36,984 nucleotides of DNA from Nanobdellota archaeon (GTDB lineage Archaea; Nanobdellota; Nanobdellia; Woesearchaeales; JACPBV01): the NCBI GenBank assembly GCA_027623355.1, contig JAQBWB010000001.1, positions 1 through 36,984 of the forward strand, written 5' to 3'. Positions 6,091-31,033 of this stretch are shown here, piece by piece. The first letter of the stretch is position 1; every line of letters starts with the position of its first letter. The translations under genes were made by a program, and so were the position numbers. The notes below the pieces were generated by a model. That model was given only the letters and a program-made list of their open reading frames with translations, made no database searches and was not told the origin of the DNA.

Positions 6091-6199
6091 TTTTCTCTTG
6101 TTTTGAGGTGAATTTAGTCTCGTTTTTAAGGTTATGGTTTCTACAGAAAGCTTTATATATAGACTATATACTACCAAATATATTCGAGATAAAAAGGAT

Positions 6200-7078
6200 A
6201 TGAATATACGAAACGTACAGAAAACAGGGAACATGCATTATGTGTACCTGCCGACTAGTTGGTGCAAGCAATATAACATTAGTTCTTCATCGAAGGTAAG
6301 TGTTACTGCTAATAACGACGGTAGTTTAACGGTTTCTCCTGATACGCGTGAGGCTGAACAGCACCATTTGACCTTAGATGTTCCTGAGGCATCGTCTTCT
6401 ATGTTGATTAAATTGATTATGGCGTGTTACGTTAATCCTACGCAGTCTTTTACATTAAAACTTGCGAAGCAGACTAATCTTGCTGCGTTATTGGATAAAA
6501 GAAGATCTATCTCTGCTCTTGAATTTGTTGAATTAGAGGGGGACACTATTACTCACGAATCTAGCATCTCTATTAAGGACCCTAAAACTATTTTGAAGAT
6601 GATGGTGAAGAAGATTCACAGTTTGTCACATGTTATGCTTGAAAATTATGATCGCAATCTTATTAACCGTTATGAGGAGGAGATTGACAAAAGTAAATTG
6701 TTGATTACGAAATCGGTTGTTAGTTCGCTTGCTGATAACGCAGTTATGGTGATAAAGCCACTCGATTTACATTATATCGCTTTACTTGCTAGTCATCTGG
6801 AGCGGATGGTTGATTCGTTGATAATGGTTGACAGCAAGGAGACTGCATTCTTGAAGCAGGTCTCTGCACTATTAGGTTCACTTAAGGAATTAACCGATCG
6901 GCTTTCTAGTCTTGATTTAACTCGTGTTATTGATTTTGAGGCTGAGGTTAGTGCATTGAAGACTCCTGACGTTAATAACATCAAGACTTATGGAATGCGA
7001 CGTATAAGAATTAATCTCAATAAGGTCACTGAGGTGCTCTTTGATTGGGTCATTAGCAACAAAATTATTAAGAAGTAA
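6200..7078 (+). CDS. AbrB/SpoVT-domain plus PhoU-like repeat regulator (paralog 1)
   Basis: The N-terminus VQKTGNMHYVYLPTSW aligns with GFGKNSLAITLPKSW of the paralog at 29996-31033, and a helical PhoU-like region follows. ATG 6200 was chosen over 6134 by alignment with the paralog. Confidence 0.65.
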   Translation: MNIRNVQKTGNMHYVYLPTSWCKQYNISSSSKVSVTANNDGSLTVSPDTREAEQHHLTLDVPEASSSMLIKLIMACYVNPTQSFTLKLAKQTNLAALLDKRRSISALEFVELEGDTITHESSISIKDPKTILKMMVKKIHSLSHVMLENYDRNLINRYEEEIDKSKLLITKSVVSSLADNAVMVIKPLDLHYIALLASHLERMVDSLIMVDSKETAFLKQVSALLGSLKELTDRLSSLDLTRVIDFEAEVSALKTPDVNNIKTYGMRRIRINLNKVTEVLFDWVISNKIIKK

Positions 7079-7146: not shown

Positions 7147-7455
7147 ATGTTGGGAATCATACAAGAATTAAAGGAAACTGAGAAGAAAGCAGCTTTAAAT
7201 ATCGAGAGTGCTGGTAAAAAAGCAGTCGAGGATTTGGCTAAAGCTGAACAGGCTGGAAAGGATGCAGGTGATGCTTTGCAGGTCAAGATGGACAAGGAGA
7301 AACTTGATAAGTTAGCAATAGCTCAAAAAGAGGTTGATGCTGAGGTTGTAAAGATAGAGTCCCAGGGTAAAAAGGAGCTTGAGTCTTTGAAAAAGGCAGC
7401 AACTAGTAAGAAGACGAAAATTGTTGAGGCTGTTACGAAAGCACTATTAGAATGA
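7147..7455 (+). CDS. atpH: A-type ATP synthase subunit H
   Basis: 102-aa Lys/Glu/Ala-rich coiled-coil protein at the first position of an HIKECFABD operon. GGAGG lies 8 nt upstream. Confidence 0.75.
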   Translation: MLGIIQELKETEKKAALNIESAGKKAVEDLAKAEQAGKDAGDALQVKMDKEKLDKLAIAQKEVDAEVVKIESQGKKELESLKKAATSKKTKIVEAVTKALLE

Positions 7456-9398
7456 GTAAACCACTTGAGATGAGCAAGGTTACGCTTTTTGCTCTGCAGA
7501 AAGAGAGGAGTTCTTTATTAAGCGAGATTCAGTCCTTAGGAGTATTGCAACCGGTTGAGATTAAGCGCGATGCAGTCGAGGAATTAGAGAAACCTAAACA
7601 GATTACCTCGATAAAGGAGGTTGCCGATACATTGATTGGTGTCTCTCGAATGGTTCGTATTTTGAAGTTGGCTCCTAGAAAAACTGACATGGTTCAAAAT
7701 GTTTTGGGCTTAGAATTATTAGACAAAAGAAAGGTTGAGAGGAAAAATGATGCTGAAGTTATCAAAGGTGCTCAAACATTTTTAGAGGCCCATGAAACTT
7801 CATTAATTACGCTTGAGATCGAATATACTACTCTTGTTGAGGAGGAAGATGAGTTGAATACTCATAAACAAGTTATTGAACAGCTTTCTGCTTTAGGCGT
7901 TCCGTTATCTGAACTTGCGGATACGGACAAACTGGGCATTCTTATTGCTCGAGTTCCCGTTGAACAGGCTGCAGTTCTTAGGACTGCCTTGGAATCGAAA
8001 AAGACGGTTGCATTTGAGATGAATGCACTTTCTAAAAAGGAATATATAGTTACCCTTATTTCTTTACAGCGATTATTACTTGATTCCACTACTTTATTGA
8101 AACAGCAGGGGGCTTCAATTCTTAGCTTACCTACATGGGCTTTAAAGGAGCATCCCGGTAGGTACATTAAGTCTCAATTGACCGAGGTTAGCGATAAGAA
8201 AAAGGCAGTTATTGAAAGAATCGCTAAACATGCTAAGTCGCTATTCGAGGATGCCGTTATTTTTAGAGAGGAGTTGGAGATTGTTAAGAATAGATTGGAA
8301 ACGGTGCATAAGATGCTTGATTCTTCTAGCTTTTTTGTGATGCAGGGATGGATTGCTACTAAAGACGCAAATCATTTTGAGGAGAAGATAACGAAAAAGA
8401 TTGATGCGGTTAGTGTGCTTGTGGAGGAACCTTCTAAGGATGATGTTGTGCCAGTAGCATTACAAAACAGGAAATCTTTGAAACCGTTTGAGATGCTTAC
8501 AGAACTTTATGCATTGCCAAAATATGGTGATTTAGATCCTACTTTTATTGTTGGTCCTTTATTCTTGATTTTTGCAGCATTCATGTTGACGGATGCAGTG
8601 TATGGATTAGGACTCGTATTACTTGGAGCCATTATTCTAAAGAAATTTGCAAAATATGATGAAGGATTGAAGCAGATTGGTATTATTATTGCTGGAATGG
8701 GTAGTTTGACTGTTTTATTCGGGGTATTAACCGGATCGTACTTTGGTGATTTACCTAAGTATTTCTTTGGTGTATCGTCTGAACAGCTTGCATTTTGGAA
8801 AGATCCTCTTGCTGATCCGTTGTATTTTCTGATTTTATCTATTTCGGTTGCGATCCTTTACTTGAACATTGGTTTCGTTCTTGGTATGATGGAGGATTTG
8901 CGCAAGAAGGATTACAAAACGATGGTTAAGGACAGAATATTATGGTTTTTGTTGCAAATTGGTATTGCTTTGCTTGTTTTGAAGTTTAATCCTCCTCTTT
9001 TATTTGGTGTGGGTTTAGCTACCTTGATTATTGCTGCTGCGGTGATTGGAATAGTTGTGATGCATGGTCCGCTTGGTTTACTAGGAATCTCTGGATTAAT
9101 GGGCGATATGATATCGTTTTCTAGATTATTTGCGTTGTCGTTATCAACAGCAGGCATTGCACTTGCGGTTAACTTGCTTGCTAACTTAGTAAGTGAGGTT
9201 CCTTATGTGGGTTTATTACTAGCCGTACTTATCTTTTTGATTGGTCACGCATTTGGTTTTGTTATGAACTCTATTGGAAGTTTTGTACACGCGTTACGAT
9301 TGCAATTTGTTGAATTTTTCGGTAGATTTTATGAGGGTGGCGGAGATAAATTTTCGCCACTAAAAGAGGAACGCTTCTATTCGGAGGTCGAGGAATGA
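7452..9398 (+). CDS. atpI: A-type ATP synthase subunit I (stator a-subunit homolog)
   Basis: 648 aa with a soluble N-terminal half and a polytopic C-terminal half that includes the conserved Arg region (FSRLFALSLS). ATGA overlap with atpH. Confidence 0.9.
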   Translation: MSKPLEMSKVTLFALQKERSSLLSEIQSLGVLQPVEIKRDAVEELEKPKQITSIKEVADTLIGVSRMVRILKLAPRKTDMVQNVLGLELLDKRKVERKNDAEVIKGAQTFLEAHETSLITLEIEYTTLVEEEDELNTHKQVIEQLSALGVPLSELADTDKLGILIARVPVEQAAVLRTALESKKTVAFEMNALSKKEYIVTLISLQRLLLDSTTLLKQQGASILSLPTWALKEHPGRYIKSQLTEVSDKKKAVIERIAKHAKSLFEDAVIFREELEIVKNRLETVHKMLDSSSFFVMQGWIATKDANHFEEKITKKIDAVSVLVEEPSKDDVVPVALQNRKSLKPFEMLTELYALPKYGDLDPTFIVGPLFLIFAAFMLTDAVYGLGLVLLGAIILKKFAKYDEGLKQIGIIIAGMGSLTVLFGVLTGSYFGDLPKYFFGVSSEQLAFWKDPLADPLYFLILSISVAILYLNIGFVLGMMEDLRKKDYKTMVKDRILWFLLQIGIALLVLKFNPPLLFGVGLATLIIAAAVIGIVVMHGPLGLLGISGLMGDMISFSRLFALSLSTAGIALAVNLLANLVSEVPYVGLLLAVLIFLIGHAFGFVMNSIGSFVHALRLQFVEFFGRFYEGGGDKFSPLKEERFYSEVEE

Positions 9399-12300
9399 TT
9401 TTCGGTAGTGGACTTGTTGTTAGTGAAAGTATCGTTCAATCGATCTTAAGTCCGGTTTTGGATATTTCTACTACTGTTTCTACTGGAGGGGTTGCTAATG
9501 CAACTGCTACTGTACTTACTAATGCTTCGGCAGTACTTGTTGAACATAGCTCTACGTTTTTGGGTCTTGATTTTTCTGGTATTGATGGAAAATCACTTGC
9601 GATTATTGGTGCTGCTATTGCTGTTAGTGCCGCTGGTATTGCATCTGCGGTTGGAGCTGGGATTGTGGGTGCTACTGGAGCTAAGGAGGCCGCTGAGGAT
9701 CCTAAGCGCTTTTCTACTGCTTTATTGTTTCAGGCATTGCCTCAGACACAAGGTATTTATGGATTTTTGATTGCTATTCTTATTTTATTGGGTGCTGGAT
9801 TGATTGGTGCTGCTAAGGAGATTACGATTGCACAGGGACTTGGTTCGGTTGGAGCTGGATTGGCTGTTGGAATCGCTTCTGTTTCTGCTATTGGGCAGGG
9901 TCTCGCTGCATCAGCTGGTATCGGTGCTACCTCTCGTGATAAAAAGATGTTTGGTAAATCTATTCTGTTTTCAGTCTTGCCGGAGACACAGGCATTGTAT
10001 GGATTTTTGATTGCTATTTTGATACTCGTTGGCTTTGGTATGTTTGGTTCGGCTCCCGTTGACATTTCTATTGGTGCTGGTTGGGCTGCTATAGGTGCAG
10101 GTCTTGCTATTGGGATTGCAGGTATTTCTGCTATTGGGCAGGGTACTGCTGCTGCATCTGCTATTGGTGCTGTTTTAGAAAAATCAAAATCTTTTGGAAA
10201 GGCTATTATTTTTGCAGTATTACCTGAGACACAGGCATTGTATGGATTCATTATCGCTATTCTTATTTTAATTGGATTTGGTATTCTTGGTGCTGGAACA
10301 ACAACTGTTTCGTTTGGAGTTGCCTTATTTGCTATTGGTGCAGGTTTATCGGTTGGACTAGGTGCTGTTTCTGCTATTGGGCAGGGTATTGCTGCTAGTG
10401 CTGGTATTGAAGCTGTTGCTAAGAGTGATAAGTCGTTTGGAAAGGCTATTTTGTTTTCAGTCTTACCGGAAACACAGGCATTGTATGGTTTTTTGATTGC
10501 TATTTTGTTGTTAGTTGGCGCTGGCGTATTAGGTGCCGCTAAGGCAGGTATTACTACAGCTATGGGGGTTGTTGCTATTGGTGCTGGCCTTGCTGCAGGA
10601 GTTGCTGGTATTTCTGCTATTGGGCAGGGAATTGCTGCTGCATCTGGAATTTCTGTTGTTACTGCGAAACCTAAATTGTTTGGAAAAGCTATACTTTTTT
10701 CAGTCTTGCCGGAGACACAGGCATTGTATGGATTTTTGATTGCTATTCTTTTACTTGTTGGAGGCGGTATTTTGGGTGCTGCAAAAGCAGGATTATCTAT
10801 TCACGTTGGTTTAATTGCTATTGGTGCTGGTTTGGCAACTGGACTTGCTGCTGTATCTGCATTAGGTCAGGGGATTGCTGCTAGCGCGGGTATCGAAGCT
10901 GTTGGTCGAGATGAGAAGTCTTTTGGTAAGTCGATTTTATTTTCGGTTCTTCCTGAGACACAGGCATTGTATGGATTTTTGATTGCTATTTTATTATTAG
11001 TTGGAGGCGGTTTATTAGGGGCTGTTAAGACAGGATTGAACATGTCTGTTGGCTTGATTGCTATTGGTTCTGGATTGGCAACTGGACTTGCTGCTGTATC
11101 TGCATTAGGTCAGGGGATTGCTGCTGCATCTGGATTGCGTGAAACTGCTAAGGATCCTAAGGCTTTTGGTAAGTCGATTTTGTTTTCAGTCTTGCCGGAG
11201 ACACAGGCATTGTATGGATTTTTGATTGCTATTTTATTATTAGTTGGTGGAGGTATCCTTGGAGGTAACTCTTCAAGTGGTTTAACCTCTGGAGTTGGTC
11301 TTGTTGGAATTGGAGCAGGTATTGCTGTTGGTTTAGCTGCAGTTTCAGCTATCGGACAGGGTATTGCTGCTGCAAGTGGTGTTAGTGCTACTGCTAAAGA
11401 TGGTAAGATGTTTGGAAAATCTATTTTGTTTTCAGTCTTGCCTGAAACTCAGGCATTGTATGGATTTTTGATTGCTGTTTTATTTATGATTGGAGGAGGA
11501 TTATTTGGTGCTGTAGAGGTTGGCATTACCACTCCGGTTGGACTTATTGTTATTGGAGCTAGCTTAGCTGTTGGGATTGCAGGTATTTCTGCTATTGGAC
11601 AGGGTATTGCTGCGGCTTCTGGAATTGATGCTGTTGCTAAAAATGAGAAGTCGTTTGGAAAGGCTATTTTGTTTTCAGTCTTGCCGGAAACACAGGCATT
11701 GTATGGATTCTTAGTTGCTATTCTTTTATTAGTTGGAGGAGGATTATTAGGAGCAGTTAAACAGGGCATTAGCTTATCTGTTGGATTGGTTGCGATTGGG
11801 GCTGGTTTATCGGCTGGACTTGCTGCTGTATCTGCATTAGGACAGGGTTTCGCTGCTTCGGCTGGATTAGCAGCTACTGCACGTAATCCTAAATCTTTTG
11901 GTAAGTCGATACTCTTTTCAGTTCTTCCTGAAACTCAGGCTTTGTATGGATTTTTGATTGCTATTTTATTATTAGTTGGTGGCGGTATCTTAGGTGCAAC
12001 AAGCACTGGATTGTCTGTAGGTATTGGTTTAGTTGCGGTTGGAGCTGGATTAGCAGTTGGATTGAGTGCGTTCTCTGCTGTTGGGCAGGGGATTGTTGCT
12101 AGTACTGCTGCGGATGTTGTTAGTAACAACGAGAAGTCTTTTGGTAAGTCGATTCTATTTTCAGTACTGCCTGAAACACAGGCATTGTATGGATTTTTGA
12201 TTGCTATTTTGTTGATTGCATCAGGTGGATTGATTGGTGCTGCAGCTGGCGAGATTCCGATGTCTATTGGTTTAGTTGCGGTTGGAGCAGGACTTTCTGT

Positions 12301-12724
12301 TGGAATTGCCGGCTTATCGGCTGTTGGACAGGGAATTGCTGCTGCTTCTGGTGTCGGATCGATTGCTGAAAAAGAGAATGTCTTTGGTAAATCTATTTTG
12401 TTTTCAGTCTTGCCGGAGACACAGGCATTGTATGGAATTATTATTGCGGTGTTATTATTAACTGGAGTCGGTTTACTAGGTACTTTGAAGACCGGCATTA
12501 CACTAGTACAGGGATTAGGGGGAGTTGGTGTAGGACTTACCATGGGACTTGCAGCAGTTAGTGCTGTGGGTCAGGGAATAGTGTCTGCTTCATCGATTGG
12601 TGGGGTGGTTAGAGACAATAAGAGTACGGGGAAGAGCTTGGTATTAAGCGTTATTCCCGAGACGTATGCAATATTTGGATTATTGATAGCAATACTTTTG
12701 CTTATTGGATTACAACTGATATAG
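9395..12724 (+). CDS. atpK: A-type ATP synthase proteolipid subunit K, 13 fused hairpins (26 predicted TM helices)
   Basis: The motif GQG...FGK(S/A)ILFSVLPETQALYGF repeats at an 81-aa period. Helix-2 carboxylates are E197, 278, 359, 440, 521, 602, 684, 765, 846, 927, 1008 and 1089. Hairpin 1 has Q117 instead. ATGA overlap with atpI. Confidence 0.9.
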   Translation: MIFGSGLVVSESIVQSILSPVLDISTTVSTGGVANATATVLTNASAVLVEHSSTFLGLDFSGIDGKSLAIIGAAIAVSAAGIASAVGAGIVGATGAKEAAEDPKRFSTALLFQALPQTQGIYGFLIAILILLGAGLIGAAKEITIAQGLGSVGAGLAVGIASVSAIGQGLAASAGIGATSRDKKMFGKSILFSVLPETQALYGFLIAILILVGFGMFGSAPVDISIGAGWAAIGAGLAIGIAGISAIGQGTAAASAIGAVLEKSKSFGKAIIFAVLPETQALYGFIIAILILIGFGILGAGTTTVSFGVALFAIGAGLSVGLGAVSAIGQGIAASAGIEAVAKSDKSFGKAILFSVLPETQALYGFLIAILLLVGAGVLGAAKAGITTAMGVVAIGAGLAAGVAGISAIGQGIAAASGISVVTAKPKLFGKAILFSVLPETQALYGFLIAILLLVGGGILGAAKAGLSIHVGLIAIGAGLATGLAAVSALGQGIAASAGIEAVGRDEKSFGKSILFSVLPETQALYGFLIAILLLVGGGLLGAVKTGLNMSVGLIAIGSGLATGLAAVSALGQGIAAASGLRETAKDPKAFGKSILFSVLPETQALYGFLIAILLLVGGGILGGNSSSGLTSGVGLVGIGAGIAVGLAAVSAIGQGIAAASGVSATAKDGKMFGKSILFSVLPETQALYGFLIAVLFMIGGGLFGAVEVGITTPVGLIVIGASLAVGIAGISAIGQGIAAASGIDAVAKNEKSFGKAILFSVLPETQALYGFLVAILLLVGGGLLGAVKQGISLSVGLVAIGAGLSAGLAAVSALGQGFAASAGLAATARNPKSFGKSILFSVLPETQALYGFLIAILLLVGGGILGATSTGLSVGIGLVAVGAGLAVGLSAFSAVGQGIVASTAADVVSNNEKSFGKSILFSVLPETQALYGFLIAILLIASGGLIGAAAGEIPMSIGLVAVGAGLSVGIAGLSAVGQGIAAASGVGSIAEKENVFGKSILFSVLPETQALYGIIIAVLLLTGVGLLGTLKTGITLVQGLGGVGVGLTMGLAAVSAVGQGIVSASSIGGVVRDNKSTGKSLVLSVIPETYAIFGLLIAILLLIGLQLI
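9587..12721 (+). repeat. 13 in-frame tandem units of about 243 nt, one proteolipid hairpin each
   Basis: Regular 80-82 codon spacing of the PET motif. Several units share identical stretches of 40 nt or more, such as ttttcagtcttgccggagacacaggcattgtatggatttttgattgctatt. Confidence 0.9.
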
Positions 12725-13288
12725 GTGATGACAATGAACGGCGCTGAAAACATAAAAAAAGAAATGCTTGAAGAAGCACAACAGGAAGTTGAAAAGATAC
12801 AAAAAGAGGTAGCCGAGAAAATCGATGTCTTGAAGAAAGAACATGGATCTATTAGAGATGCCTATGAAACGCAACGCAAGCATGAGATTGCTCGAGCTGC
12901 TGCATTATTAACCGATAAAACCTTGGCTCGAACTAGGTTACAGGTTAAGAGAAATTACCTGATTGAACGAGAAAAGGTTGTTGAAAGCATTGTTAAGAGT
13001 GCTAGTAAGGTAAGCCATAGCGATAAGGTGTATCAGAACTACCTCAAGGCGCTTGTTAATGAACATGTTGGAAGTTTGAAGGGTAAGATTACTATTCATT
13101 GTAATAGTAAGGATGTTTCATATGTTAGTGGTCTTGTTGACGGGATTGCGGTTGAAGAAGCGGACATTGATGGAGGTATCATTGTTGAAAATGATGCTGG
13201 TAAAAAGATTAATGAATCTTTCTTGGAGTCAATTGAGAGAAGAATGGATATGGTTCGAGAGGTTGTTGTTAAGCACTTAGGAAAATGA
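12725..13288 (+). CDS. atpE: A-type ATP synthase subunit E
   Basis: Charged coiled-coil N-terminus and globular C-terminus, about 185 aa, in the operon position after K. The start is ambiguous: GTG 12725, ATG 12728 or ATG 12734. Confidence 0.85.
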   Translation: MMTMNGAENIKKEMLEEAQQEVEKIQKEVAEKIDVLKKEHGSIRDAYETQRKHEIARAAALLTDKTLARTRLQVKRNYLIEREKVVESIVKSASKVSHSDKVYQNYLKALVNEHVGSLKGKITIHCNSKDVSYVSGLVDGIAVEEADIDGGIIVENDAGKKINESFLESIERRMDMVREVVVKHLGK

Positions 13289-14319
13289 TTGATGTTACCG
13301 TACCTTTAGTTGTTGGCGGCGCTGCGGTAGCTGGGCTTGTAGTCATCGCGCCGATAACGAAGTATGCATTGGATATGTATCCTTACTTGTATGCTAACAC
13401 GCGTTGTGCTAGTCGTGCTGGGTTGTTGTTAACGAAGAAGCACTACGATGATTTATTGGGTGCTGGTTCGATTGAGGAAGTCTATGGTGGACTGGAAGAT
13501 AGTTCATATGCATCAATAGTCGAACATCATAAAGACTTTTTTTCATTTTCACGTGGCTTGGAGCAGGATTATGTTGAAACCTTATCCTGGATTCAGGAGA
13601 TTAGTCCTAACACGGTTAAGGGTGTTGTATCGGCATTGCAGAAACGCTCTGAAATTAATACGTTAAAGGAAATTATGGGTAATTTGAAGAATAAGAAGGA
13701 GTTGCCTTCTTTGGTTGGTATTGCTGATGCTACACTTCGGGTAAGGATTGAGGGAATCAAGGATATGCAGGGCTTTCAGGTAGCTTTAGAAGGAAGTGTG
13801 TATGGTGAGTTGCTTGCGAGTATTGATTTAGAGAGAATGGCCGAGATTAATACGTCATTAGATCGTTTCTATCTAGAGCAGTTGCAGGATGCTATCTCTA
13901 GTGTAAAAGATAGTGATGTCAAAAGTGCGTTTCTTACCTATGTTACCGTTCTTATTGATTTATTTAATGTTCGCCTTGCGTTAAGGAGTAGTGGGCAGGT
14001 GAGCTATTTGGAAGGTGGGGTGCTCGATTCTGAGGCTTTGGCTTCTGCCGCAGATAATACTCAACTTGAATCGGTGTTTAGTGCTAGTGTGTATGGTGAA
14101 GGGATGAGTGGGTTTTCTCTTACAAAGCTAGAGCAGGCTTTTATTTCTTACCTTCAAAAACAGGCGGAGATTATTGGAGTTAAATATAATCTGAAGGCTG
14201 GGATGTTGTTACGTTATTTAATTCACAAAGAAATTGAGATTAGAAATGTGAATGCGTTGGTTAAATTAAAATCTGAGGGATTTGATGCTGAAGAAATCAG
14301 ATCGTATGTGGTGGTTTAG
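13285..14319 (+). CDS. atpC: A-type ATP synthase subunit C (V-type d homolog)
   Basis: 344-aa helical protein in the operon position between E and F. ATGA overlap with atpE. Confidence 0.85.
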   Translation: MIDVTVPLVVGGAAVAGLVVIAPITKYALDMYPYLYANTRCASRAGLLLTKKHYDDLLGAGSIEEVYGGLEDSSYASIVEHHKDFFSFSRGLEQDYVETLSWIQEISPNTVKGVVSALQKRSEINTLKEIMGNLKNKKELPSLVGIADATLRVRIEGIKDMQGFQVALEGSVYGELLASIDLERMAEINTSLDRFYLEQLQDAISSVKDSDVKSAFLTYVTVLIDLFNVRLALRSSGQVSYLEGGVLDSEALASAADNTQLESVFSASVYGEGMSGFSLTKLEQAFISYLQKQAEIIGVKYNLKAGMLLRYLIHKEIEIRNVNALVKLKSEGFDAEEIRSYVVV

Positions 14320-14450
14320 ATGGAAATATCACTCAATGGGCATCTTCGAAATCCAGATTGTCTATTTGAAGGCTCTGTGGCCCGGATGGCACAACCCCTA
14401 CGACGAGCTGGCAGTCATTCATTGAAGGATTTCGACTTTAGGATGCTTGA
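14320..14450 (+). repeat. MITE-related structured intercistronic element, copy F (no TIRs)
   Basis: Shares catcttcgaaat..., cccgga.gg....acccc and atttcgac.ttaggatgct blocks with the MITE core. Helices 14346-14354/14427-14435, 14371-14375/14405-14409 and 14376-14379/14399-14402 are maintained. It also forms a 51-codon ORF, 14320-14475. Confidence 0.7.
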
Positions 14451-14465
14451 TTGGGAGATGATATC

Positions 14466-14759
14466 ATGGAAATAGGAATACTCGCGGATCAGGATACCTT
14501 GATGGGCTTTAGGGTAGCGGGAGTTACGCGAAGTGTGTTGTTTGATCTTGAAACGTTGAAGGAGGATTTGAAACAGCTGGATGATGTTGCTATTTTATTG
14601 GTTACTGAAAAAATAGGAATAGAAATTAGAAAATTAGATGTTACGATTTCACCTGTATTAGTTGGTGTACCTGATAAAGGTGGAAGTACAGGGAATGCGT
14701 TATTAGAGATTGCTAAACTTTACGAAGAGGCAATCGGTGTAAAACTCAAGGAAAAATAG
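14466..14759 (+). CDS. atpF: A-type ATP synthase subunit F
   Basis: MEIGILADQDTLMGFRVAGV is a typical F-subunit N-terminus. ATG 14466 is preferred over TTG 14451. Confidence 0.85.
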   Translation: MEIGILADQDTLMGFRVAGVTRSVLFDLETLKEDLKQLDDVAILLVTEKIGIEIRKLDVTISPVLVGVPDKGGSTGNALLEIAKLYEEAIGVKLKEK

Positions 14760-14771
14760 GAGGGATATGAT

Positions 14772-16532
14772 ATGGTAGAAGGAATAATTATTAAAATTTC
14801 AGGACCGGTTGTAGTCGCTAAAGACATGGCAGGTGTAAAGATGTATGAGGTGGTTAGAGTCGGTAACGAAGGCCTTATTGGCGAAGTTATTGAGCTCTTT
14901 AAAGATAGGGCTACGATCCAGGTCTATGAGGAGACTTCAGGTATGCAGCCAGGCGAGAAAGTTGTTTCGCAGGGTCAGTCGTTGTCTGTTGAATTAGGAC
15001 CGGGTATCATGGGTAATATCTATGATGGTATTATGAGACCGTTGAAACAGATTCAGAAAAAATCTGGTGCGTTCATGGCTCGTGGAATTGATGCTGATGC
15101 AATTGACCACAAGAAGAAGTGGAAGTTTGTGCCTTCGGCTAAAAAGGGTGACCAAGTTATAGGCGGACAGATTATTGGTGAGGTTGCAGAGACTTCAGCT
15201 GTTGTTCAGAAAATTATGATTCCCCCTCGAGTTTCGGGTGAAATTAAAAAAATTGTTAAGACTGGCGAGTATACAGTTACTGAGAGTATAGCTACTGTCG
15301 CTACACAGGATGGAGATGTTGAGGTACAGCTGTCACAGAAGTGGCCTGTTCGAAACCCACGTCCCGTTAAAAGTAAGGAAGAACCTACGATTCCTTTGAT
15401 TTCTGGTTTGCGTATCTTGGATACGTTTAATCCAGTTGCAAAGGGAGGTACTGCTGCTACGCCTGGTGCTTTTGGTACCGGTAAAACAGTAACTCAGCAG
15501 AGTCTTGCTAAATGGTGTAATGCAGATATTATTGTCTACATTGGCTGTGGTGAAAGAGGAAATGAGATGACGGATGTTCTTAAGACCTTTCCTGAATTGG
15601 TAGATCCACGATCTGGAAAGCCGTTACTTGAAAGAACGGTTATTATTGCTAATACCTCGAACATGCCCGTTGCCGCTAGAGAGGCTTCGGTCTACACCGG
15701 TATTACGATTGCTGAATATTTTCGAGATATGGGCTATGATGTTGCATTGATGGCTGATTCGACTTCACGATGGGCTGAAGCTATGCGTGAAATTTCATCT
15801 CGTCTAGAAGAGATGCCAGGTGAGGAGGGATACCCTGCTTATCTGTCAACTCGATTAAGTCAGTTCTATGAACGAGCTGGTCGTGTAACGCCGTTAGCTG
15901 GTGGTAATGGTTCAGTTACTATTATTGGGGCTATTAGTCCTCCCGGTGGAGACTTTTCGGAACCGGTGACACAGAATACGTTGCGTGTTAACAAAACGTT
16001 CTGGGCTTTGGATAAGAGTCTTGCTAGTAAAAGACACTTTCCAGCTATTAATTGGTTGACCTCGTATTCGTTGTATTTAGATACGGTAACGGACTGGTTT
16101 AATGAACATTCTGGTAGCGATTGGAGAGATCTTCGAGACAAGGCAATGGGATTATTGCAGAAAGAGGACCAGTTGCAGGAGATTGTGCAGTTGGTTGGTC
16201 CGGATGCACTTCCTGATAACGAGCGTGTTATTCTTGAGGTTACTAAAATGTTGCGAGAGGATTTCTTGCAGCAGAATGCGTTTCTCGAAGAAGATGCATA
16301 CTGTCCAATTGAGAAGCAGTACTTAATGCTGAAATTCATTCTTGAGTTTTATGATAGGGCTCAGGAAGCTTTGAAAAAGGGTGTTAAGACTGAGGCGATT
16401 GCTGGACTTGCTATTAAAGAAAGGATTGCTCGAATGAAAGAGGCTAAGAATGAGACATTCGGCGATCATTACAAGGAGTTGCAAGCTGAAATGAGCTCGC
16501 AGTTTTCAAAAGTTGGAGGGGATGCACAATGA
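14772..16532 (+). CDS. atpA: A-type ATP synthase catalytic subunit A
   Basis: P-loop [10 protein letters not shown], the non-homologous insertion region typical of A/V-type A subunits, and LAEYFRDMG. 586 aa, contiguous, no intein. Confidence 0.97.
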
Positions 16533-17911
16533 GTAAAGGCGTAGAGTATACTAGCATTCGTGAAATTGCAGGACCTCTTTTAATTGTAGAAGATGTAGAC
16601 GGTATTGCGTTTGGTGAACTTGTTGAAATCAAGTTAGATAATGGTGACAAACGAACTGGCCAGGTTTTAGAGGCTCGAGATGATTTAGCTGTTATTCAGG
16701 TGTTTGAAGGAACTCGTGATTTGGCAACTAAGGGTATCTCGGTGCGATTTACTGGTGAAACTATGAAGGTTGGCTTATCGAAGGATATCATTGGACGTAT
16801 CTTCAATGGAGTTGGAAAACCTATCGATGGTGGACCGGCAATTATTCCTGAGAAGCGAGTAGATGTTAATGGACTTCCCATTAATCCAACGGCGCGAGAA
16901 TTTCCGGACGAATTTATTCAAACAGGTATTTCAACAATTGATGTGATGAATACTTTGGTTAGAGGACAGAAACTGCCTATCTTTTCTGAAGCAGGATTGC
17001 CGCACAACGAGCTAGCCGCTCAGATTGCGCGTCAGGCTAAGGTGAAGGGAGATGGTGGAAACTTTGCTGTTGTATTTGCAGCTATGGGAATTACGTTCGA
17101 GGAAAGTCAGTTTTTCATGAAGGACTTTGAAAGAACTGGAGCCATTGAAAATATGGTTGCTTTCATTAACTTAGCAGATGATCCAGCAATTGAGCGTATC
17201 ATTACGCCTAGAATTGCTTTATCGGCTGCTGAGTATCTTGCGTTTGAACACGATATGCATATTCTGGTTATCTTAACGGATATGACCAATTATTGTGAAG
17301 CATTGCGAGAGATTGCAGCAGCTCGAAACGAGATTCCTGGAAGACGAGGATATCCGGGATACATGTATACAGATCTTGCTATGAATTACGAACGTGCAGG
17401 TAAAATCAAGGGTAAAAAAGGATCTGTAACTCAGATTCCTATCTTGACGATGCCGCAGGGAGATATTTCTCACCCGATTCCGGACTTGACGGGATATATT
17501 ACTGAAGGGCAGATTGTTCTCTCCAAGGAACTTCATACCAAAGGTATCTATCCTCCGATTAATCCGTTGCCCTCTTTATCACGTTTGATGAATGAGGGTA
17601 TTGGTAAAGGTAAGACACGAGATGACCACGCAGGTGTATCGAACCAGCTGTATACGGTGTATGCAGAGGGAAGCGAACTGCGTGATTTGGTTGCTGTTGT
17701 TGGTGAGGAAGCGTTATCGGTTCGAGATAAGCAGTTCTTGGATGGTGCTGAGGCGTTTGAGAGGACGTTTATTACGCAGTCTAAGGACGATAATAGGGAC
17801 ATTGCTGCTTCGCTTACAATTGGTTGGGATATCTTTAAGTTAATCCCGAAAACCGAGCTTAAGAAGCTCAAGCAGGAGCATATCGATAAACATTTGGGAA
17901 AAACTGAATGA
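16529..17911 (+). CDS. atpB: A-type ATP synthase subunit B
   Basis: 460 aa with motifs such as [15 protein letters not shown] and ITEGQI that are conserved in A/V-type B subunits. ATGA overlap with atpA. Confidence 0.97.
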
Positions 17912-18030
17912 ATATGAACGAGCGTCTTCGAAATCTGGAGGGTTTTCTTCAAAGCCCTGTGACCCGGATGGTGCAACCCCCACGACGGGCTAGCATACAT
18001 TCTTTGCAGGATTTCGAACTCAGGACGCTT
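17912..18030 (+). repeat. MITE-related structured intercistronic element, copy G (no TIRs)
   Basis: cgtcttcgaaatc...agccc tgtg acccggatggtgcaacccc cacg ac gggct...ggatttcgaactcaggacgct. The helix layout matches copy F and the MITE core. It also forms a 45-codon ORF, 17908-18045, whose ATG overlaps the atpB stop. Confidence 0.7.
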
Positions 18031-18051
18031 GAGGTGAAGAGGTAAATAATA

Positions 18052-18675
18052 ATGGCATCAAAAATACATGCAGCAACTCGAATGGAGTTGCTTCGATTAA
18101 AGAAGAAGGCTAAGCTAGCTGCGAAAGGATTTAAATTGCTTAAGCAGAAGCGAGATGCACTTATTTCTGAGTTCTTTTCTTATATCGATAAGTTGAAGGT
18201 TATTCGTACTGAGATGGAGGATAAGTTGGCGGTTGCCTACAAATCTTTGATCTTGGCTCAGGCATTGTCTGGTGGTCCTGAAATTGAACGTGCTGCATCT
18301 GCTTCTAGTGCTGCGTACTCAATTGAATCTTCAACTAACAATATTATGGGTGTTGAGGTGCCTGCTTTCAGGGCAACTGAACTAACAACTGAGGCAGGAT
18401 ACAGTAAATTGTCGCCTTCTTTGGAATTAGATAGTGCTCGCACTAATTTTAAGGAGTCTCTTGCTATTATTATTAAGTTGGCTGGAGCTGAGGCTACGGT
18501 TCGCAAATTAGCAGCTGAGATTAAGAAAACTAAAAGAAAGGTCAATGCTTTGGAGCGTATTCTTATTCCTCGGATTAATAATGATATCACTTACATCAAG
18601 GTTCGTCTTGAGGAGTTGGAGCGAGAGAACTTTGCCAGATTGAAGGTCGTTAAAAAACGTATTGAAGTGCAATGA
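18052..18675 (+). CDS. atpD: A-type ATP synthase subunit D (central stalk)
   Basis: 207-aa coiled-coil protein with TRMELLRLKKK at the N-terminus and LEELERENFARLK at the C-terminus, both typical of the D subunit. GAGGTGAAGAGG lies upstream. Confidence 0.9.
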   Translation: MASKIHAATRMELLRLKKKAKLAAKGFKLLKQKRDALISEFFSYIDKLKVIRTEMEDKLAVAYKSLILAQALSGGPEIERAASASSAAYSIESSTNNIMGVEVPAFRATELTTEAGYSKLSPSLELDSARTNFKESLAIIIKLAGAEATVRKLAAEIKKTKRKVNALERILIPRINNDITYIKVRLEELERENFARLKVVKKRIEVQ

Positions 18676-22148: not shown

Positions 22149-22166
22149 TCTATTGAAGAAAAAAAG

Positions 22167-22239
22167 TAGCCCCACCCGGATTTGAACCGAGGTCCTTCGG
22201 CCCAGAACCGAAGATGATTGGCCGCTACACTATGGGGCT
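22167..22239 (-). tRNA. tRNA-Gln (anticodon CUG), 73 nt, no intron, CCA not encoded
   Basis: Hand-folded cloverleaf. Acceptor stem AGCCCCA/TGGGGCT, anticodon stem TTCGG/CCGAA with loop TTCTGGG, T arm CTCGG-TTCAAAT-CCGGG, discriminator A. Confidence 0.9.
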
Positions 22240-23040: not shown

Positions 23041-26100
<3,060 letters not shown>

Positions 26101-29992: not shown

Positions 29993-30000
29993 TATTTAAA
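29993..30000 (-). promoter_or_regulatory. TATA box (tttaaata on the - strand) for purM
   Basis: Lies 23 nt upstream of ATG 29969. It overlaps the stop region of the upstream PhoU-like gene. Confidence 0.45.
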
Positions 30001-31033
30001 GCTTTTGTTCGGTGTCAGTTCCGAGTACAATTCTTGCTATATTTCTCGTTTCGCGCGTCATTATCTTCATTGATTCGACGATTCTACTTTCAATGATGAA
30101 TGATTTGGGTTTAATCTCTTTGGTTTCTCCCTTTAGATATTGATCTATGTAGGTTTCGAATCCGTTGTCAAGTTCTATTAGTAGTTTTTTTGTCGTTACC
30201 TCGATCTCCAGTGCGATTTCTTTATTCGTGTTGTAATATGATTTCATGGCATCGAGATAGCGCTGCTGGATGACCTGGAAAAGTTCACCCAGAATTCTTT
30301 TGGGTTTTCCTACAAGAAGGATGTTGAGTAAGTCGTTAGCTATTCTTTTTGCTTGATCTGCAATGCGTTCGATTCTGATGGTGAGGCTTCGATGATCTTG
30401 GAGATCTACAGGGCTCATTTGTATCTTGGTTTGATAGGCTGGATTTTGCATAGCGCCACGAACTACGCGATATGCAAGGAAATGGAGTCTGTTCACATCG
30501 GTATCTCTGGTGTGGATATTGGTAACTAATTCTTTTTGTTCTGACTCCTTATTTTCTCCCTCTAGCGATAGGCAGGTGAGCGTATCCTCGATCATGGAGC
30601 GGGTGATGATGTCTATTCTTCTTACGATTTTTTTGATTGAGACTTCATTGATATCCATTAGATCTTTTGCAATGATTTTTTTTGCGGTTTGTTCTAGGAT
30701 CTCCATTCCCGATAGGCTGAGTATTTCGGTGATGATCGCTCTTGCGTCGGTAATGACGCTTTTGCTTACTATTCTGATGGTGGAATAGTTTTGAAGATAC
30801 GCTGTAAATATTTGAGATTTAACCTTCTCAGGATTTTTTTTGTCGATAGTGATGGTGATGGATTTTGCTTTCTTGGGTGCTGAGGTGTGCTGAGGTGCTA
30901 TGGTGAGTGTATGATTGTCTTCATCAACCTCTACGGTGTCTCCTTTTTGGACGCTGTGTTTTGTTGACCAGCTTTTGGGTAGCGTGATTGCTAGAGAATT
31001 CTTACCAAACCCTATCACTTTTCTTGATTCCAT
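29996..31033 (-). CDS. AbrB/SpoVT-domain plus PhoU-like repeat regulator (paralog 2)
   Basis: GFGKNSLAITLPKSWSTKHSVQKGDTVEV forms a swapped-hairpin AbrB-like N-terminus, followed by two helical PhoU-like repeats. 345 aa. Confidence 0.75.
   Translation of the reverse strand: MESRKVIGFGKNSLAITLPKSWSTKHSVQKGDTVEVDEDNHTLTIAPQHTSAPKKAKSITITIDKKNPEKVKSQIFTAYLQNYSTIRIVSKSVITDARAIITEILSLSGMEILEQTAKKIIAKDLMDINEVSIKKIVRRIDIITRSMIEDTLTCLSLEGENKESEQKELVTNIHTRDTDVNRLHFLAYRVVRGAMQNPAYQTKIQMSPVDLQDHRSLTIRIERIADQAKRIANDLLNILLVGKPKRILGELFQVIQQRYLDAMKSYYNTNKEIALEIEVTTKKLLIELDNGFETYIDQYLKGETKEIKPKSFIIESRIVESMKIMTRETRNIARIVLGTDTEQKL

Follow-up and report, generated by a model that had tools for sequence, protein, structure and literature searches.

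A fused thirteen-hairpin rotor subunit with twelve predicted ion sites and a blank seam in a Nanobdellota archaeon

Introduction

Why would a rotary ATPase carry a rotor in which one ion site is missing, and does the gap serve the number of ions that pass per ATP? The question is raised by one gene in a stretch of 36,984 nucleotides (the window; contig JAQBWB010000001.1, positions 1 to 36,984 of the forward strand, assembly GCA_027623355.1) from a Nanobdellota archaeon. The gene encodes subunit K, the proteolipid or c subunit of an A/V-type ATPase, and lies at 9395–12724 on the plus strand, as do all features below unless stated otherwise. Its product of 1109 amino acids consists of 13 fused helical hairpins (PF00137). 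A preliminary description of the locus had claimed that the first hairpin has lost both residues of its ion site, that the position is silent by design, and that 12 sites on 13 hairpins give an integer ratio of ions to ATP. Our analysis makes it quite likely that K is a single-chain 13-hairpin rotor of a Na+-type A/V-ATPase with 12 sites, and that the missing site is a blank seam inherited from V-type subunits.

Rings of identical subunits alter the ion/ATP ratio only through ring size. A natural ring with one blank, together with relatives in which two to four blanks occupy defined places, offers a ready-made series. It bears on how a rotor steps over a missing tooth, on the extent of elastic coupling, and on how gear ratio relates to lifestyle (in small symbiotic archaea, making ATP as opposed to pumping ions). 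Parts of the picture are already known: the 13-site Methanopyrus rotor, two- and three-hairpin subunits with lost sites, and the hybrid ring of Acetobacterium woodii with its single blank. In the searchable literature the 13-hairpin form was known before only from Methanopyrus. A search for work on fused 12- or 13-hairpin rotors in DPANN/Nanoarchaeota, on a blank seam, or on an n−1 rule over 2–13 hairpins found none (subscription journals lay outside its coverage).

Results

The missing site

K matches PF00137 in 13 stretches (E = 5.7e-212; score 686.7 bits, family cutoff 24). The gene repeats internally with a period of 243 nucleotides (81 amino acids), and the copies are about 70% identical in DNA (Tandem Repeats Finder). 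Hairpins 2–12 (9797–12502) each carry a full set of ligands, helix 1 contributing GQG and helix 2 contributing L-P-E-T-Q-A-L-Y. Hairpin 1 (amino acids 65–134; 9587–9796) has neither the helix-1 Gln nor the helix-2 Glu. Residues S84–V91 read SAVGAGIV, with A88 (GCT, 9656–9658) in place of the GQG Gln found in each of the other 12 hairpins, and L115–F124 read LPQTQGIYGF, with Q117 (CAG, 9743–9745) where the other 12 have Glu (GAG). These positions are equivalent to Q110 and E139 of NtpK from Enterococcus hirae. The loss of both ligands, originally placed at 9587–9830 (amino acids 65–145, hairpin 1 with the loop that leads on to hairpin 2), is thus confirmed in the translated open reading frame (ORF) and in an alignment of all 13 hairpins. 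Four further residues of hairpin 1, L115, T118, Q119 and Y122, are kept.

The other end of the protein has changed as well. Hairpin 13 (about amino acids 1037–1109; 12503–12721) reads IPETYAIFG and had been called divergent but in possession of its Gln, Glu and Thr. It does keep Q1060, E1089 and the Thr. To call it merely divergent misses the point, since the Gln and Tyr that a hairpin lends to its neighbor are gone, replaced by Y1091 (TAT, 12665–12667) and F1094 (12674–12676), which together would make up the hairpin-13 half of the lost site (12665–12676).

Why both ends should be affected can be understood from NtpK. In this protein the Na+ ligands come from one four-helix bundle: helix 2 contributes the L61 carbonyl, T64 and Q65, helix 3 contributes Q110, and helix 4 contributes E139 (PMC2359735). 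This numbering is consistent with our alignment of K and NtpK. Translated to K, the outer helix of hairpin i−1 would give site i a backbone carbonyl (from the Leu), a Thr, a Gln and a Tyr that supports the Glu, and hairpin i would supply the helix-1 Gln and the helix-2 Glu. Because an NtpK-type site spans hairpins i−1 and i, the changes from Gln to Tyr and from Tyr to Phe on hairpin 13 and the residues A88 and Q117 on hairpin 1 are parts of a single lost site.

When K is scored junction by junction, the motif of Na+-binding c subunits (helix-1 Gln, helix-2 Glu-Thr(-Gln) and supporting Tyr; PMC2359735, PMC7911925) is complete at 12 of 13 junctions, from 1→2 through 12→13, which agrees with the 12 sites proposed initially. 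At 13→1 four residues are replaced: the Gln by Y1091 and the Tyr by F1094 on hairpin 13, the Gln by A88 and the Glu by Q117 on hairpin 1. Judging from these ligands, what is blank is not one hairpin but a single interface site, located at the 13|1 seam where the chain ends meet. The residues that the two terminal hairpins retain fit this prediction. Hairpin 1 keeps L115, T118, Q119 and Y122 because the site on hairpin 2 needs them, and hairpin 13 keeps Q1060 and E1089 because both form site 12→13. If the seam model is accepted, the odds that four ligand substitutions placed at random all fall in the same one of 13 sites are about (1/13)^3 = 4.6e-4. The model also defines a precise set of four residues for a repair of the site.

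One could argue that the pattern of hairpin 1 is a sequencing or assembly error. We reject this explanation because the codon of A88 is more than one base away from any Gln codon and because the pattern recurs in independent metagenome-assembled genomes (MAGs) and in a single-cell genome. A collapse of repeats is unlikely too, since the repeats of K are so dissimilar in DNA.

Conservation and covariation in relatives

If the blank were the product of drift, we would not expect to find it again in other genomes. We built a hidden Markov model from hairpins 2–12 of K and used it to scan 80 homologues. A scan of GTDB, with one genome per species, yielded 14 related loci, all from MAGs of Woesearchaeota, Nanoarchaeota or Nanobdellota save one single-cell genome (a few of the records are titled 'Methanosarcinales'). 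K itself is 100% identical to a protein from a Nanoarchaeota MAG (P0001). Wherever the respective ends are present in the 14 loci, the first hairpin reads AQTQY and the last QETYF. Hence the claim of a silent position, as opposed to random drift, stands: every related locus with an N-terminus has the same hairpin-1 signature, and the alignment of orthologues, which the preliminary description had named as a check, finds the substitutions conserved, including in the single-cell genome.

The same holds for the wider set. Leaving aside Methanopyrus and Asgard, the first hairpin is (A/V/T)-Q-T-Q-Y in every homologue with an intact N-terminus and the last hairpin Q-E-T-(Y/F)-(F/L) in every homologue with an intact C-terminus; the latter signature is common to all relatives that have the silent first hairpin. 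A silent seam is found in 58 complete homologue clusters. Written as the lent residues of one hairpin followed by the Gln and Glu positions of the next, the seams of complete proteins are FF→VQ (38), YF→AQ (17), FF→TQ (2) and FL→AQ (1), and a complete QY→QE occurs in seven, all of the Methanopyrus group.

Junctions inside the proteins behave in the same way. Complete internal junctions (QY→QE) number 539 across the homologues. Wherever an internal hairpin has exchanged its Glu for Gln, the hairpin before it has its Tyr replaced (22 QM→QQ, 3 FF→VQ, 2 HS→QQ and 1 HA→QQ), with 0 counter-examples. Such covariation across the junction is what a site shared by hairpins i−1 and i predicts, and it therefore supports the seam model. 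In some relatives there are also sites that lose the helix-1 Gln alone (QN→IE, HF→LE, QF→LE), possibly a sign that their ion chemistry differs.

Within K, hairpin 1 is least like its sisters, at 48% mean identity versus 60–70% for hairpins 2–12. Among orthologues with thirteen hairpins (11 compared) it is the best kept of all, at 80% mean identity versus 65–80% for hairpins 2–13 (79–80% for hairpins 2 and 3), and L115, T118, Q119 and Y122 are invariant. Because it is divergent from its sisters yet best conserved among orthologues, hairpin 1 is predicted to be a specialized element under constraint and not a decaying one. By the same comparisons the blank seam is old and conserved.

The n−1 rule and the descent of the first hairpin

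Where does a blank seam come from? We searched 1.84 billion representative sequences exhaustively with HMMER and applied the same hairpin scan to the results. V/A-type proteolipids with 2, 3, 4, 6, 12 and 13 hairpins follow one formula: [x-(Q/G/M/A/S)-T-Q-Y], then n−2 copies of [Q-E-T-Q-Y], then [Q-E-T-(F/Y)-(F/L)]. A protein with n hairpins of these sizes has n−1 sites, and none of them lies across a polypeptide boundary. NtpK (VGTQY QETYL) is the case n = 2, the complete 13/13 rotor of Methanopyrus is the exception, and K is, going by its ligands, the extreme of the series at n = 13. It shows the V-type pattern, with a first hairpin that lacks Gln and carboxylate and keeps Thr, Gln and Tyr, and a last hairpin that lacks the lent Gln and Tyr. 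What it does not share is the size of a V-type two-hairpin subunit (four helices, about 16 kDa), having 13 hairpins and 1109 amino acids.

The resemblance goes beyond the ligands. When the ligand columns are masked, proteins with two to six hairpins have a silent first hairpin that best matches hairpin 1 of K in 12 of the 16 tested; P0110, for example, gives 170 against hairpin 1 of K and 126 against the next hairpin. Active hairpins, in turn, place hairpin 1 of K near the end of the list, 10th to 13th of 13. Under the same masking, hairpin 1 of K best matches hairpin 1 in 11 of 11 representatives outside Methanopyrus. These matches suggest that K and the V-type two-hairpin subunits have a silent first hairpin of one old lineage, and that the seam of K would be a former interface between subunits.

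The relatives yielded several other observations on fused proteolipids. The 4- or 6-hairpin c subunits of Thermoplasmata and Euryarchaeota (P0042–P0072, P0081 and P0084–P0088) carry N-terminal extensions of 110–310 amino acids. Those of Thermoplasmata with 6 hairpins show what looks like a signal peptide, together with PKD domains (PF00801, PF18911, PF22352); here a rotor subunit is fused to folded domains outside the cell. P0028, P0031 and P0034 resemble tandemly duplicated 6-hairpin units. The fused proteolipids of Promethearchaeota/Asgard (P0073–P0080, P0097, P0155) form a separate family with up to 15 hairpins and about 1140 amino acids; they have a Glu in every hairpin and Na+ ligands in none, and their hairpins read 'IEALY', an H+-type motif.

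K also begins with a tail (amino acids 1–64; 9395–9586) that is rich in Ser, Thr and Asn, is predicted to be disordered and contains two N-X-S/T sequons, at N35 and N43. Its first 61 residues have a pLDDT (predicted local distance difference test) below 50 in the AlphaFold2 model. In orthologues the tail has 0–96 amino acids and 0–7 sequons (2–7 in those that have one). The tail of K probably lies outside the cell and may be N-glycosylated, which would make it an appendage on a rotating ring.

Structural support and proposed mechanism

Hairpins 1–2 align end to end with NtpK (2BL2; E = 1e-19), and with the whole of K as the query, NtpK is best aligned at amino acids 65–212. The first hairpin of NtpK, with GVG and LLPGTQGLYGF, resembles hairpin 1 of K (GAG in helix 1, LPQTQGIYGF in helix 2), and the last helix of NtpK (VETYAILGF) resembles hairpin 13 (PETYAIFG). 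The AlphaFold2 model of K, made from a 17-sequence alignment, has a pLDDT of 80.6 and a pTM (predicted template modeling score) of 0.82, a value that points to a confident overall arrangement, and hairpin 1 is modeled as confidently as the rest. Its closest match in fold is again NtpK (2BL2_A, TM-score 0.88, 1.3 Å; Foldseek against the PDB). The Foldseek search of the PDB returned only two-hairpin chains, with no single-chain ring among the solved structures.

Subunit I, the stator, is most similar to NtpI of the Na+ V-ATPase (8WCI, E = 5.6e-48) and has the conserved arginines that face the ring. R558 (SFSRLFAL; 9123–9125) aligns with the Arg motif YTRLMAL of E. hirae NtpI and R616 (HALRLQFVEFF; 9297–9299) with its second Arg motif, GARLQYVEFF.

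From these elements we can propose how the rotor may work. One chain of K would close into the whole ring, with the C-terminal hairpin packed against the N-terminal hairpin at the seam. The neutral Gln at the carboxylate position would resemble an occupied site. Because Gln is uncharged like an ion-loaded site, the blank could face the lipid and pass the stator Arg pair without an ion. One step per turn would then be uncoupled, and 12 ions would pass per 3 ATP. The preliminary description had pointed to one step per turn that cannot carry an ion past the stator Arg. This is no new problem: such steps are normal in V-type two-hairpin subunits and in the hybrid ring of A. woodii. The blank would have been inherited as a V-type interface between subunits and not selected for the ion/ATP ratio. 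The residues, their conservation, the covariation at the junctions and the n−1 rule are observed; ring closure by one chain, Na+ specificity and the behavior of the Gln at the stator are what we infer from sequence, homology and one predicted structure.

Gene neighborhood

K is part of an A/V-type ATPase operon at 7147–18675, recognized from Pfam matches for I, K, E, C, F, A, B and D, in this order on the plus strand, and from the list of ORFs. Its start codon overlaps the stop codon of gene I (ATGA). Subunit I (7452–9398, PF01496) precedes K; subunits E (12725–13288, PF01991), C (13285–14319, PF01992), F (14451–14759, PF01990), A (14772–16532, PF00006), B (16529–17911, PF00006) and D (18052–18675, PF01813) follow. 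A small ORF at the start of the operon (7147–7455) is without a Pfam match and, going by its position, is probably subunit H. Since the operon is of A/V type and has a single K gene, it is not an F/V hybrid like that of A. woodii, which has several c products in an F-type operon.

Several ORFs of 60–200 amino acids that overlie K (9492–12753; e.g., 9757–10251 and 11935–12543), whether on the minus strand or in another frame, recur with the period of the hairpins. They are by-products of the repeat and not genes.

The window, which makes up a whole contig of a MAG, has a G+C content of 40%. Directly upstream of the operon, an ORF at 6134–7078 has an N-terminal AbrB/MazE-type domain and might regulate it. 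A paralogous ORF on the minus strand (29996–31033) adds a PhoU domain; the two encode about 315–345 amino acids. The gene for DNA gyrase B (23041–26034, minus strand) contains an intein (PF14890, amino acids 491–794) located between its GyrB and Toprim domains. A single tRNA-Gln (CTG) at 22166–22239 on the minus strand adjoins the gene for ribosomal protein S3Ae. The remainder of the window is archaeal housekeeping: ProRS, ZPR1, PyrB/PyrI, a dihydroorotase-like amidohydrolase and MscS.

Discussion

Our results suggest that the blank in K is an old seam. There are points that weigh against this reading. Closure of the ring by a single chain is deduced here much as it was for Methanopyrus kandleri, and the contact between hairpins 13 and 1 is a predicted one. 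Calls of Na+ versus H+ from motifs are unreliable, and in one case the prediction contradicted experiment (PMC3017947). In the masked comparison with E. hirae NtpK itself, hairpin 1 reaches no more than a tie and hairpin 13 gives no signal. The last hairpin has no orthology signal across clades, only among close relatives. The argument for descent would hence rest on the closer relatives with two to six hairpins and not on E. hirae NtpK. Convergence, which the tie with NtpK had suggested, lost ground once these closer relatives gave a clear signal for hairpin 1.

The seam could also be a secondary loss. Under this explanation the ancestor had 13 complete sites, as in Methanopyrus; the two free ends and the tail made the seam unsuitable for a site, and the likeness to V-type subunits is convergent. 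The Methanopyrus group, complete at 13/13 and about 50% identical to K, would provide such an ancestor, the likeness of K to E. hirae NtpK beyond the ligand columns is not specific, and many relatives bear N-terminal tails or PKD domains on hairpin 1. Yet hairpin 1, when masked, still falls in with silent first hairpins of 2–6-hairpin proteins in the 12 of 16 comparisons given above, and likewise with the first hairpin of every 12- and 6-hairpin relative. The link between silent seam and N-terminal tail is not a strict one, as relatives without a tail (P0014, P0015, P0017, P0023) have the silent seam too. We therefore think an independent loss unlikely. Far less credible still is that hairpin 1 stands outside the ring wall, as a pore plug or assembly anchor, and leaves a ring of 12 hairpins. 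Eukaryotic Vo, with extra helices in its central pore, offers a model for such a plug. Hairpin 1 lacks the carboxylate and is the most divergent hairpin inside K, and rings of 12 hairpins are known (Thermus thermophilus chains are among the matches). It is the logic of the ligands on which we reject the plug. What hairpin 1 keeps invariant is exactly what the site of hairpin 2 needs, whereas hairpin 13 lacks the Gln and Tyr that it would owe hairpin 2 if hairpin 1 were removed. Moreover, the homologous silent hairpin of NtpK sits in the ring wall, and the same pattern in proteins with 12, 6, 4, 3 and 2 hairpins would lead to implausible numbers of plugs. We give this explanation next to no chance.

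The remaining explanation is adaptive. The preliminary description took the integer ratio as the rationale of the blank: a site was silenced to leave 12, so that exactly 4 ions pass per catalytic step. The arithmetic holds (12/3 = 4.0), the blank is conserved across relatives, and exactly 12 of 13 sites occur in three other proteins or loci (P0002/L001 and L006). However, the relatives that share the silent hairpin 1 show no preference for integers. Thirteen-hairpin relatives are blank at hairpin 1 alone (two clusters and the single-cell locus), at 1 and 6 (three), at 1 and 10 (two), at 1, 6 and 10 (three) or at 1, 6, 9 and 10 (one). Twelve-hairpin relatives are blank at 1 alone (eight), at 1 and 7 (three), and also at 1 and 9, at 1, 6 and 9, and at 1, 7 and 10. 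The sites that remain number 12, 11, 10 or 9 in the thirteen-hairpin proteins and 11, 10 or 9 in the twelve-hairpin ones. Per ATP, this corresponds to 4.0, 3.67, 3.33 or 3.0 ions, and non-integer values are commoner than integers. The silent first hairpin is also found in subunits with 2, 3, 4 and 6 hairpins, to which integer gearing cannot apply. Non-integer ratios are, moreover, normal for rotary ATPases, where elastic coupling absorbs them. Because the relatives vary in the number of sites and the 2–6-hairpin subunits share the silent hairpin, an integer ratio is not supported as the reason for the blank; as an explanation for K, selection for it seems very improbable to us.

The blanks that relatives have in addition to the seam are worth considering on their own. 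In these proteins (L002, L003, L005, L007, L010; P0003–P0015) a change from Tyr to Met on hairpin i−1 is paired with a change from Glu to Gln on hairpin i. In 13-hairpin proteins it is hairpins 6 and 10 at which the additional blanks recur, and positions 1, 6 and 10 are spaced by 5, 4 and 4 hairpins, or roughly 120 degrees. Since a single-chain rotor encodes each ion site separately, the ratio could be tunable site by site. One could imagine that the lineage sets its ion/ATP ratio by point substitutions on a ring of fixed size, that blanks at 1, 6 and 10 are possibly phase-locked to the three catalytic sites, and that K is the base state with one blank. We find this idea attractive and rather doubtful. 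Counter to a three-fold spacing, blanks also occur at 1, 7 and 10 of 12 hairpins, at 1 and 9 of 12, and at 1, 6, 9 and 10 of 13. Because of these other patterns the three-fold spacing is speculation only.

Comparison with known systems

A close counterpart in architecture is subunit K of M. kandleri, a single polypeptide of about 1020 amino acids with 13 hairpins that was deduced to be a monomeric rotor (Lolkema & Boekema 2003, cited in PMC2359735 and PMC3639240). The two proteins share 13 hairpins fused in one chain and the Na+-type motif Q...ETQ..Y, at the identity already given for the Methanopyrus group (P0024, P0026). They differ in that the M. kandleri rotor has a complete ligand set in all 13 hairpins (PMC2359735), whereas our K has 12 sites, a blank seam and a tail of 64 amino acids.

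With respect to the blank, K resembles the c-ring of the A. woodii F1Fo F/V hybrid (4BEM), a Na+ ring with one blank per turn (11 hairpins, 10 sites). That ring is built from nine one-hairpin c subunits and one V-type c subunit with a single site, and the enzyme makes ATP (PMC9171764). The change from Glu to Gln is known there as well, as the silent 'Q....QT' hairpin of c1 in A. woodii and Clostridium aceticum (PMC7911925). In contrast to K, in which the first hairpin of one chain is silent, the A. woodii ring is of F type, made from separate c2/3 and c1 products, and it is the second hairpin of c1 that is silent.

A single-chain rotor has also been engineered. In the fused c10 ring of Bacillus PS3 individual sites were changed to cE56D, and the ring still works with one altered site (PMC8809890). 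Like K, it is a single-chain rotor with individually alterable sites. Unlike K, which is natural and has lost a site, it is an artificial F-type H+ ring, in which the mutated sites slow proton transfer and are not removed.

Between the extremes stands the proteolipid of Methanocaldococcus jannaschii, with three hairpins per chain, so that several chains are needed per ring where K has one 13-hairpin chain. Ruppert and colleagues are said to have described it in 1999 as having three hairpins and two carboxylates, which would fit the n−1 rule at n = 3. A literature search for the statement on two carboxylates found nothing usable. The 3-hairpin protein P0094 shows such a pattern, reading VQTQY QETQY QETFF. 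That the M. jannaschii proteolipid is triplicated is on record (PMC2359735).

The best match of K in the PDB, in sequence and in fold, is NtpK. In NtpK (2BL2) and other two-hairpin V-type subunits, as in K, the first hairpin has neither Gln nor Glu yet gives Leu, Thr, Gln and Tyr to its neighbor, the last hairpin contributes Gln and Glu, with the sequence ETYAI(L/F)G, and no site lies across the polypeptide boundary. They differ at the silent carboxylate position, which is Gly in NtpK and Gln in K, and in how the ring is made: ten chains of two hairpins with one site each in NtpK, and, by prediction, one chain of 13 hairpins with 12 sites in K. The n−1 rule, from 2 to 13 hairpins, joins the two-hairpin subunits of V-type ATPases and the giant fused rotors in one series.

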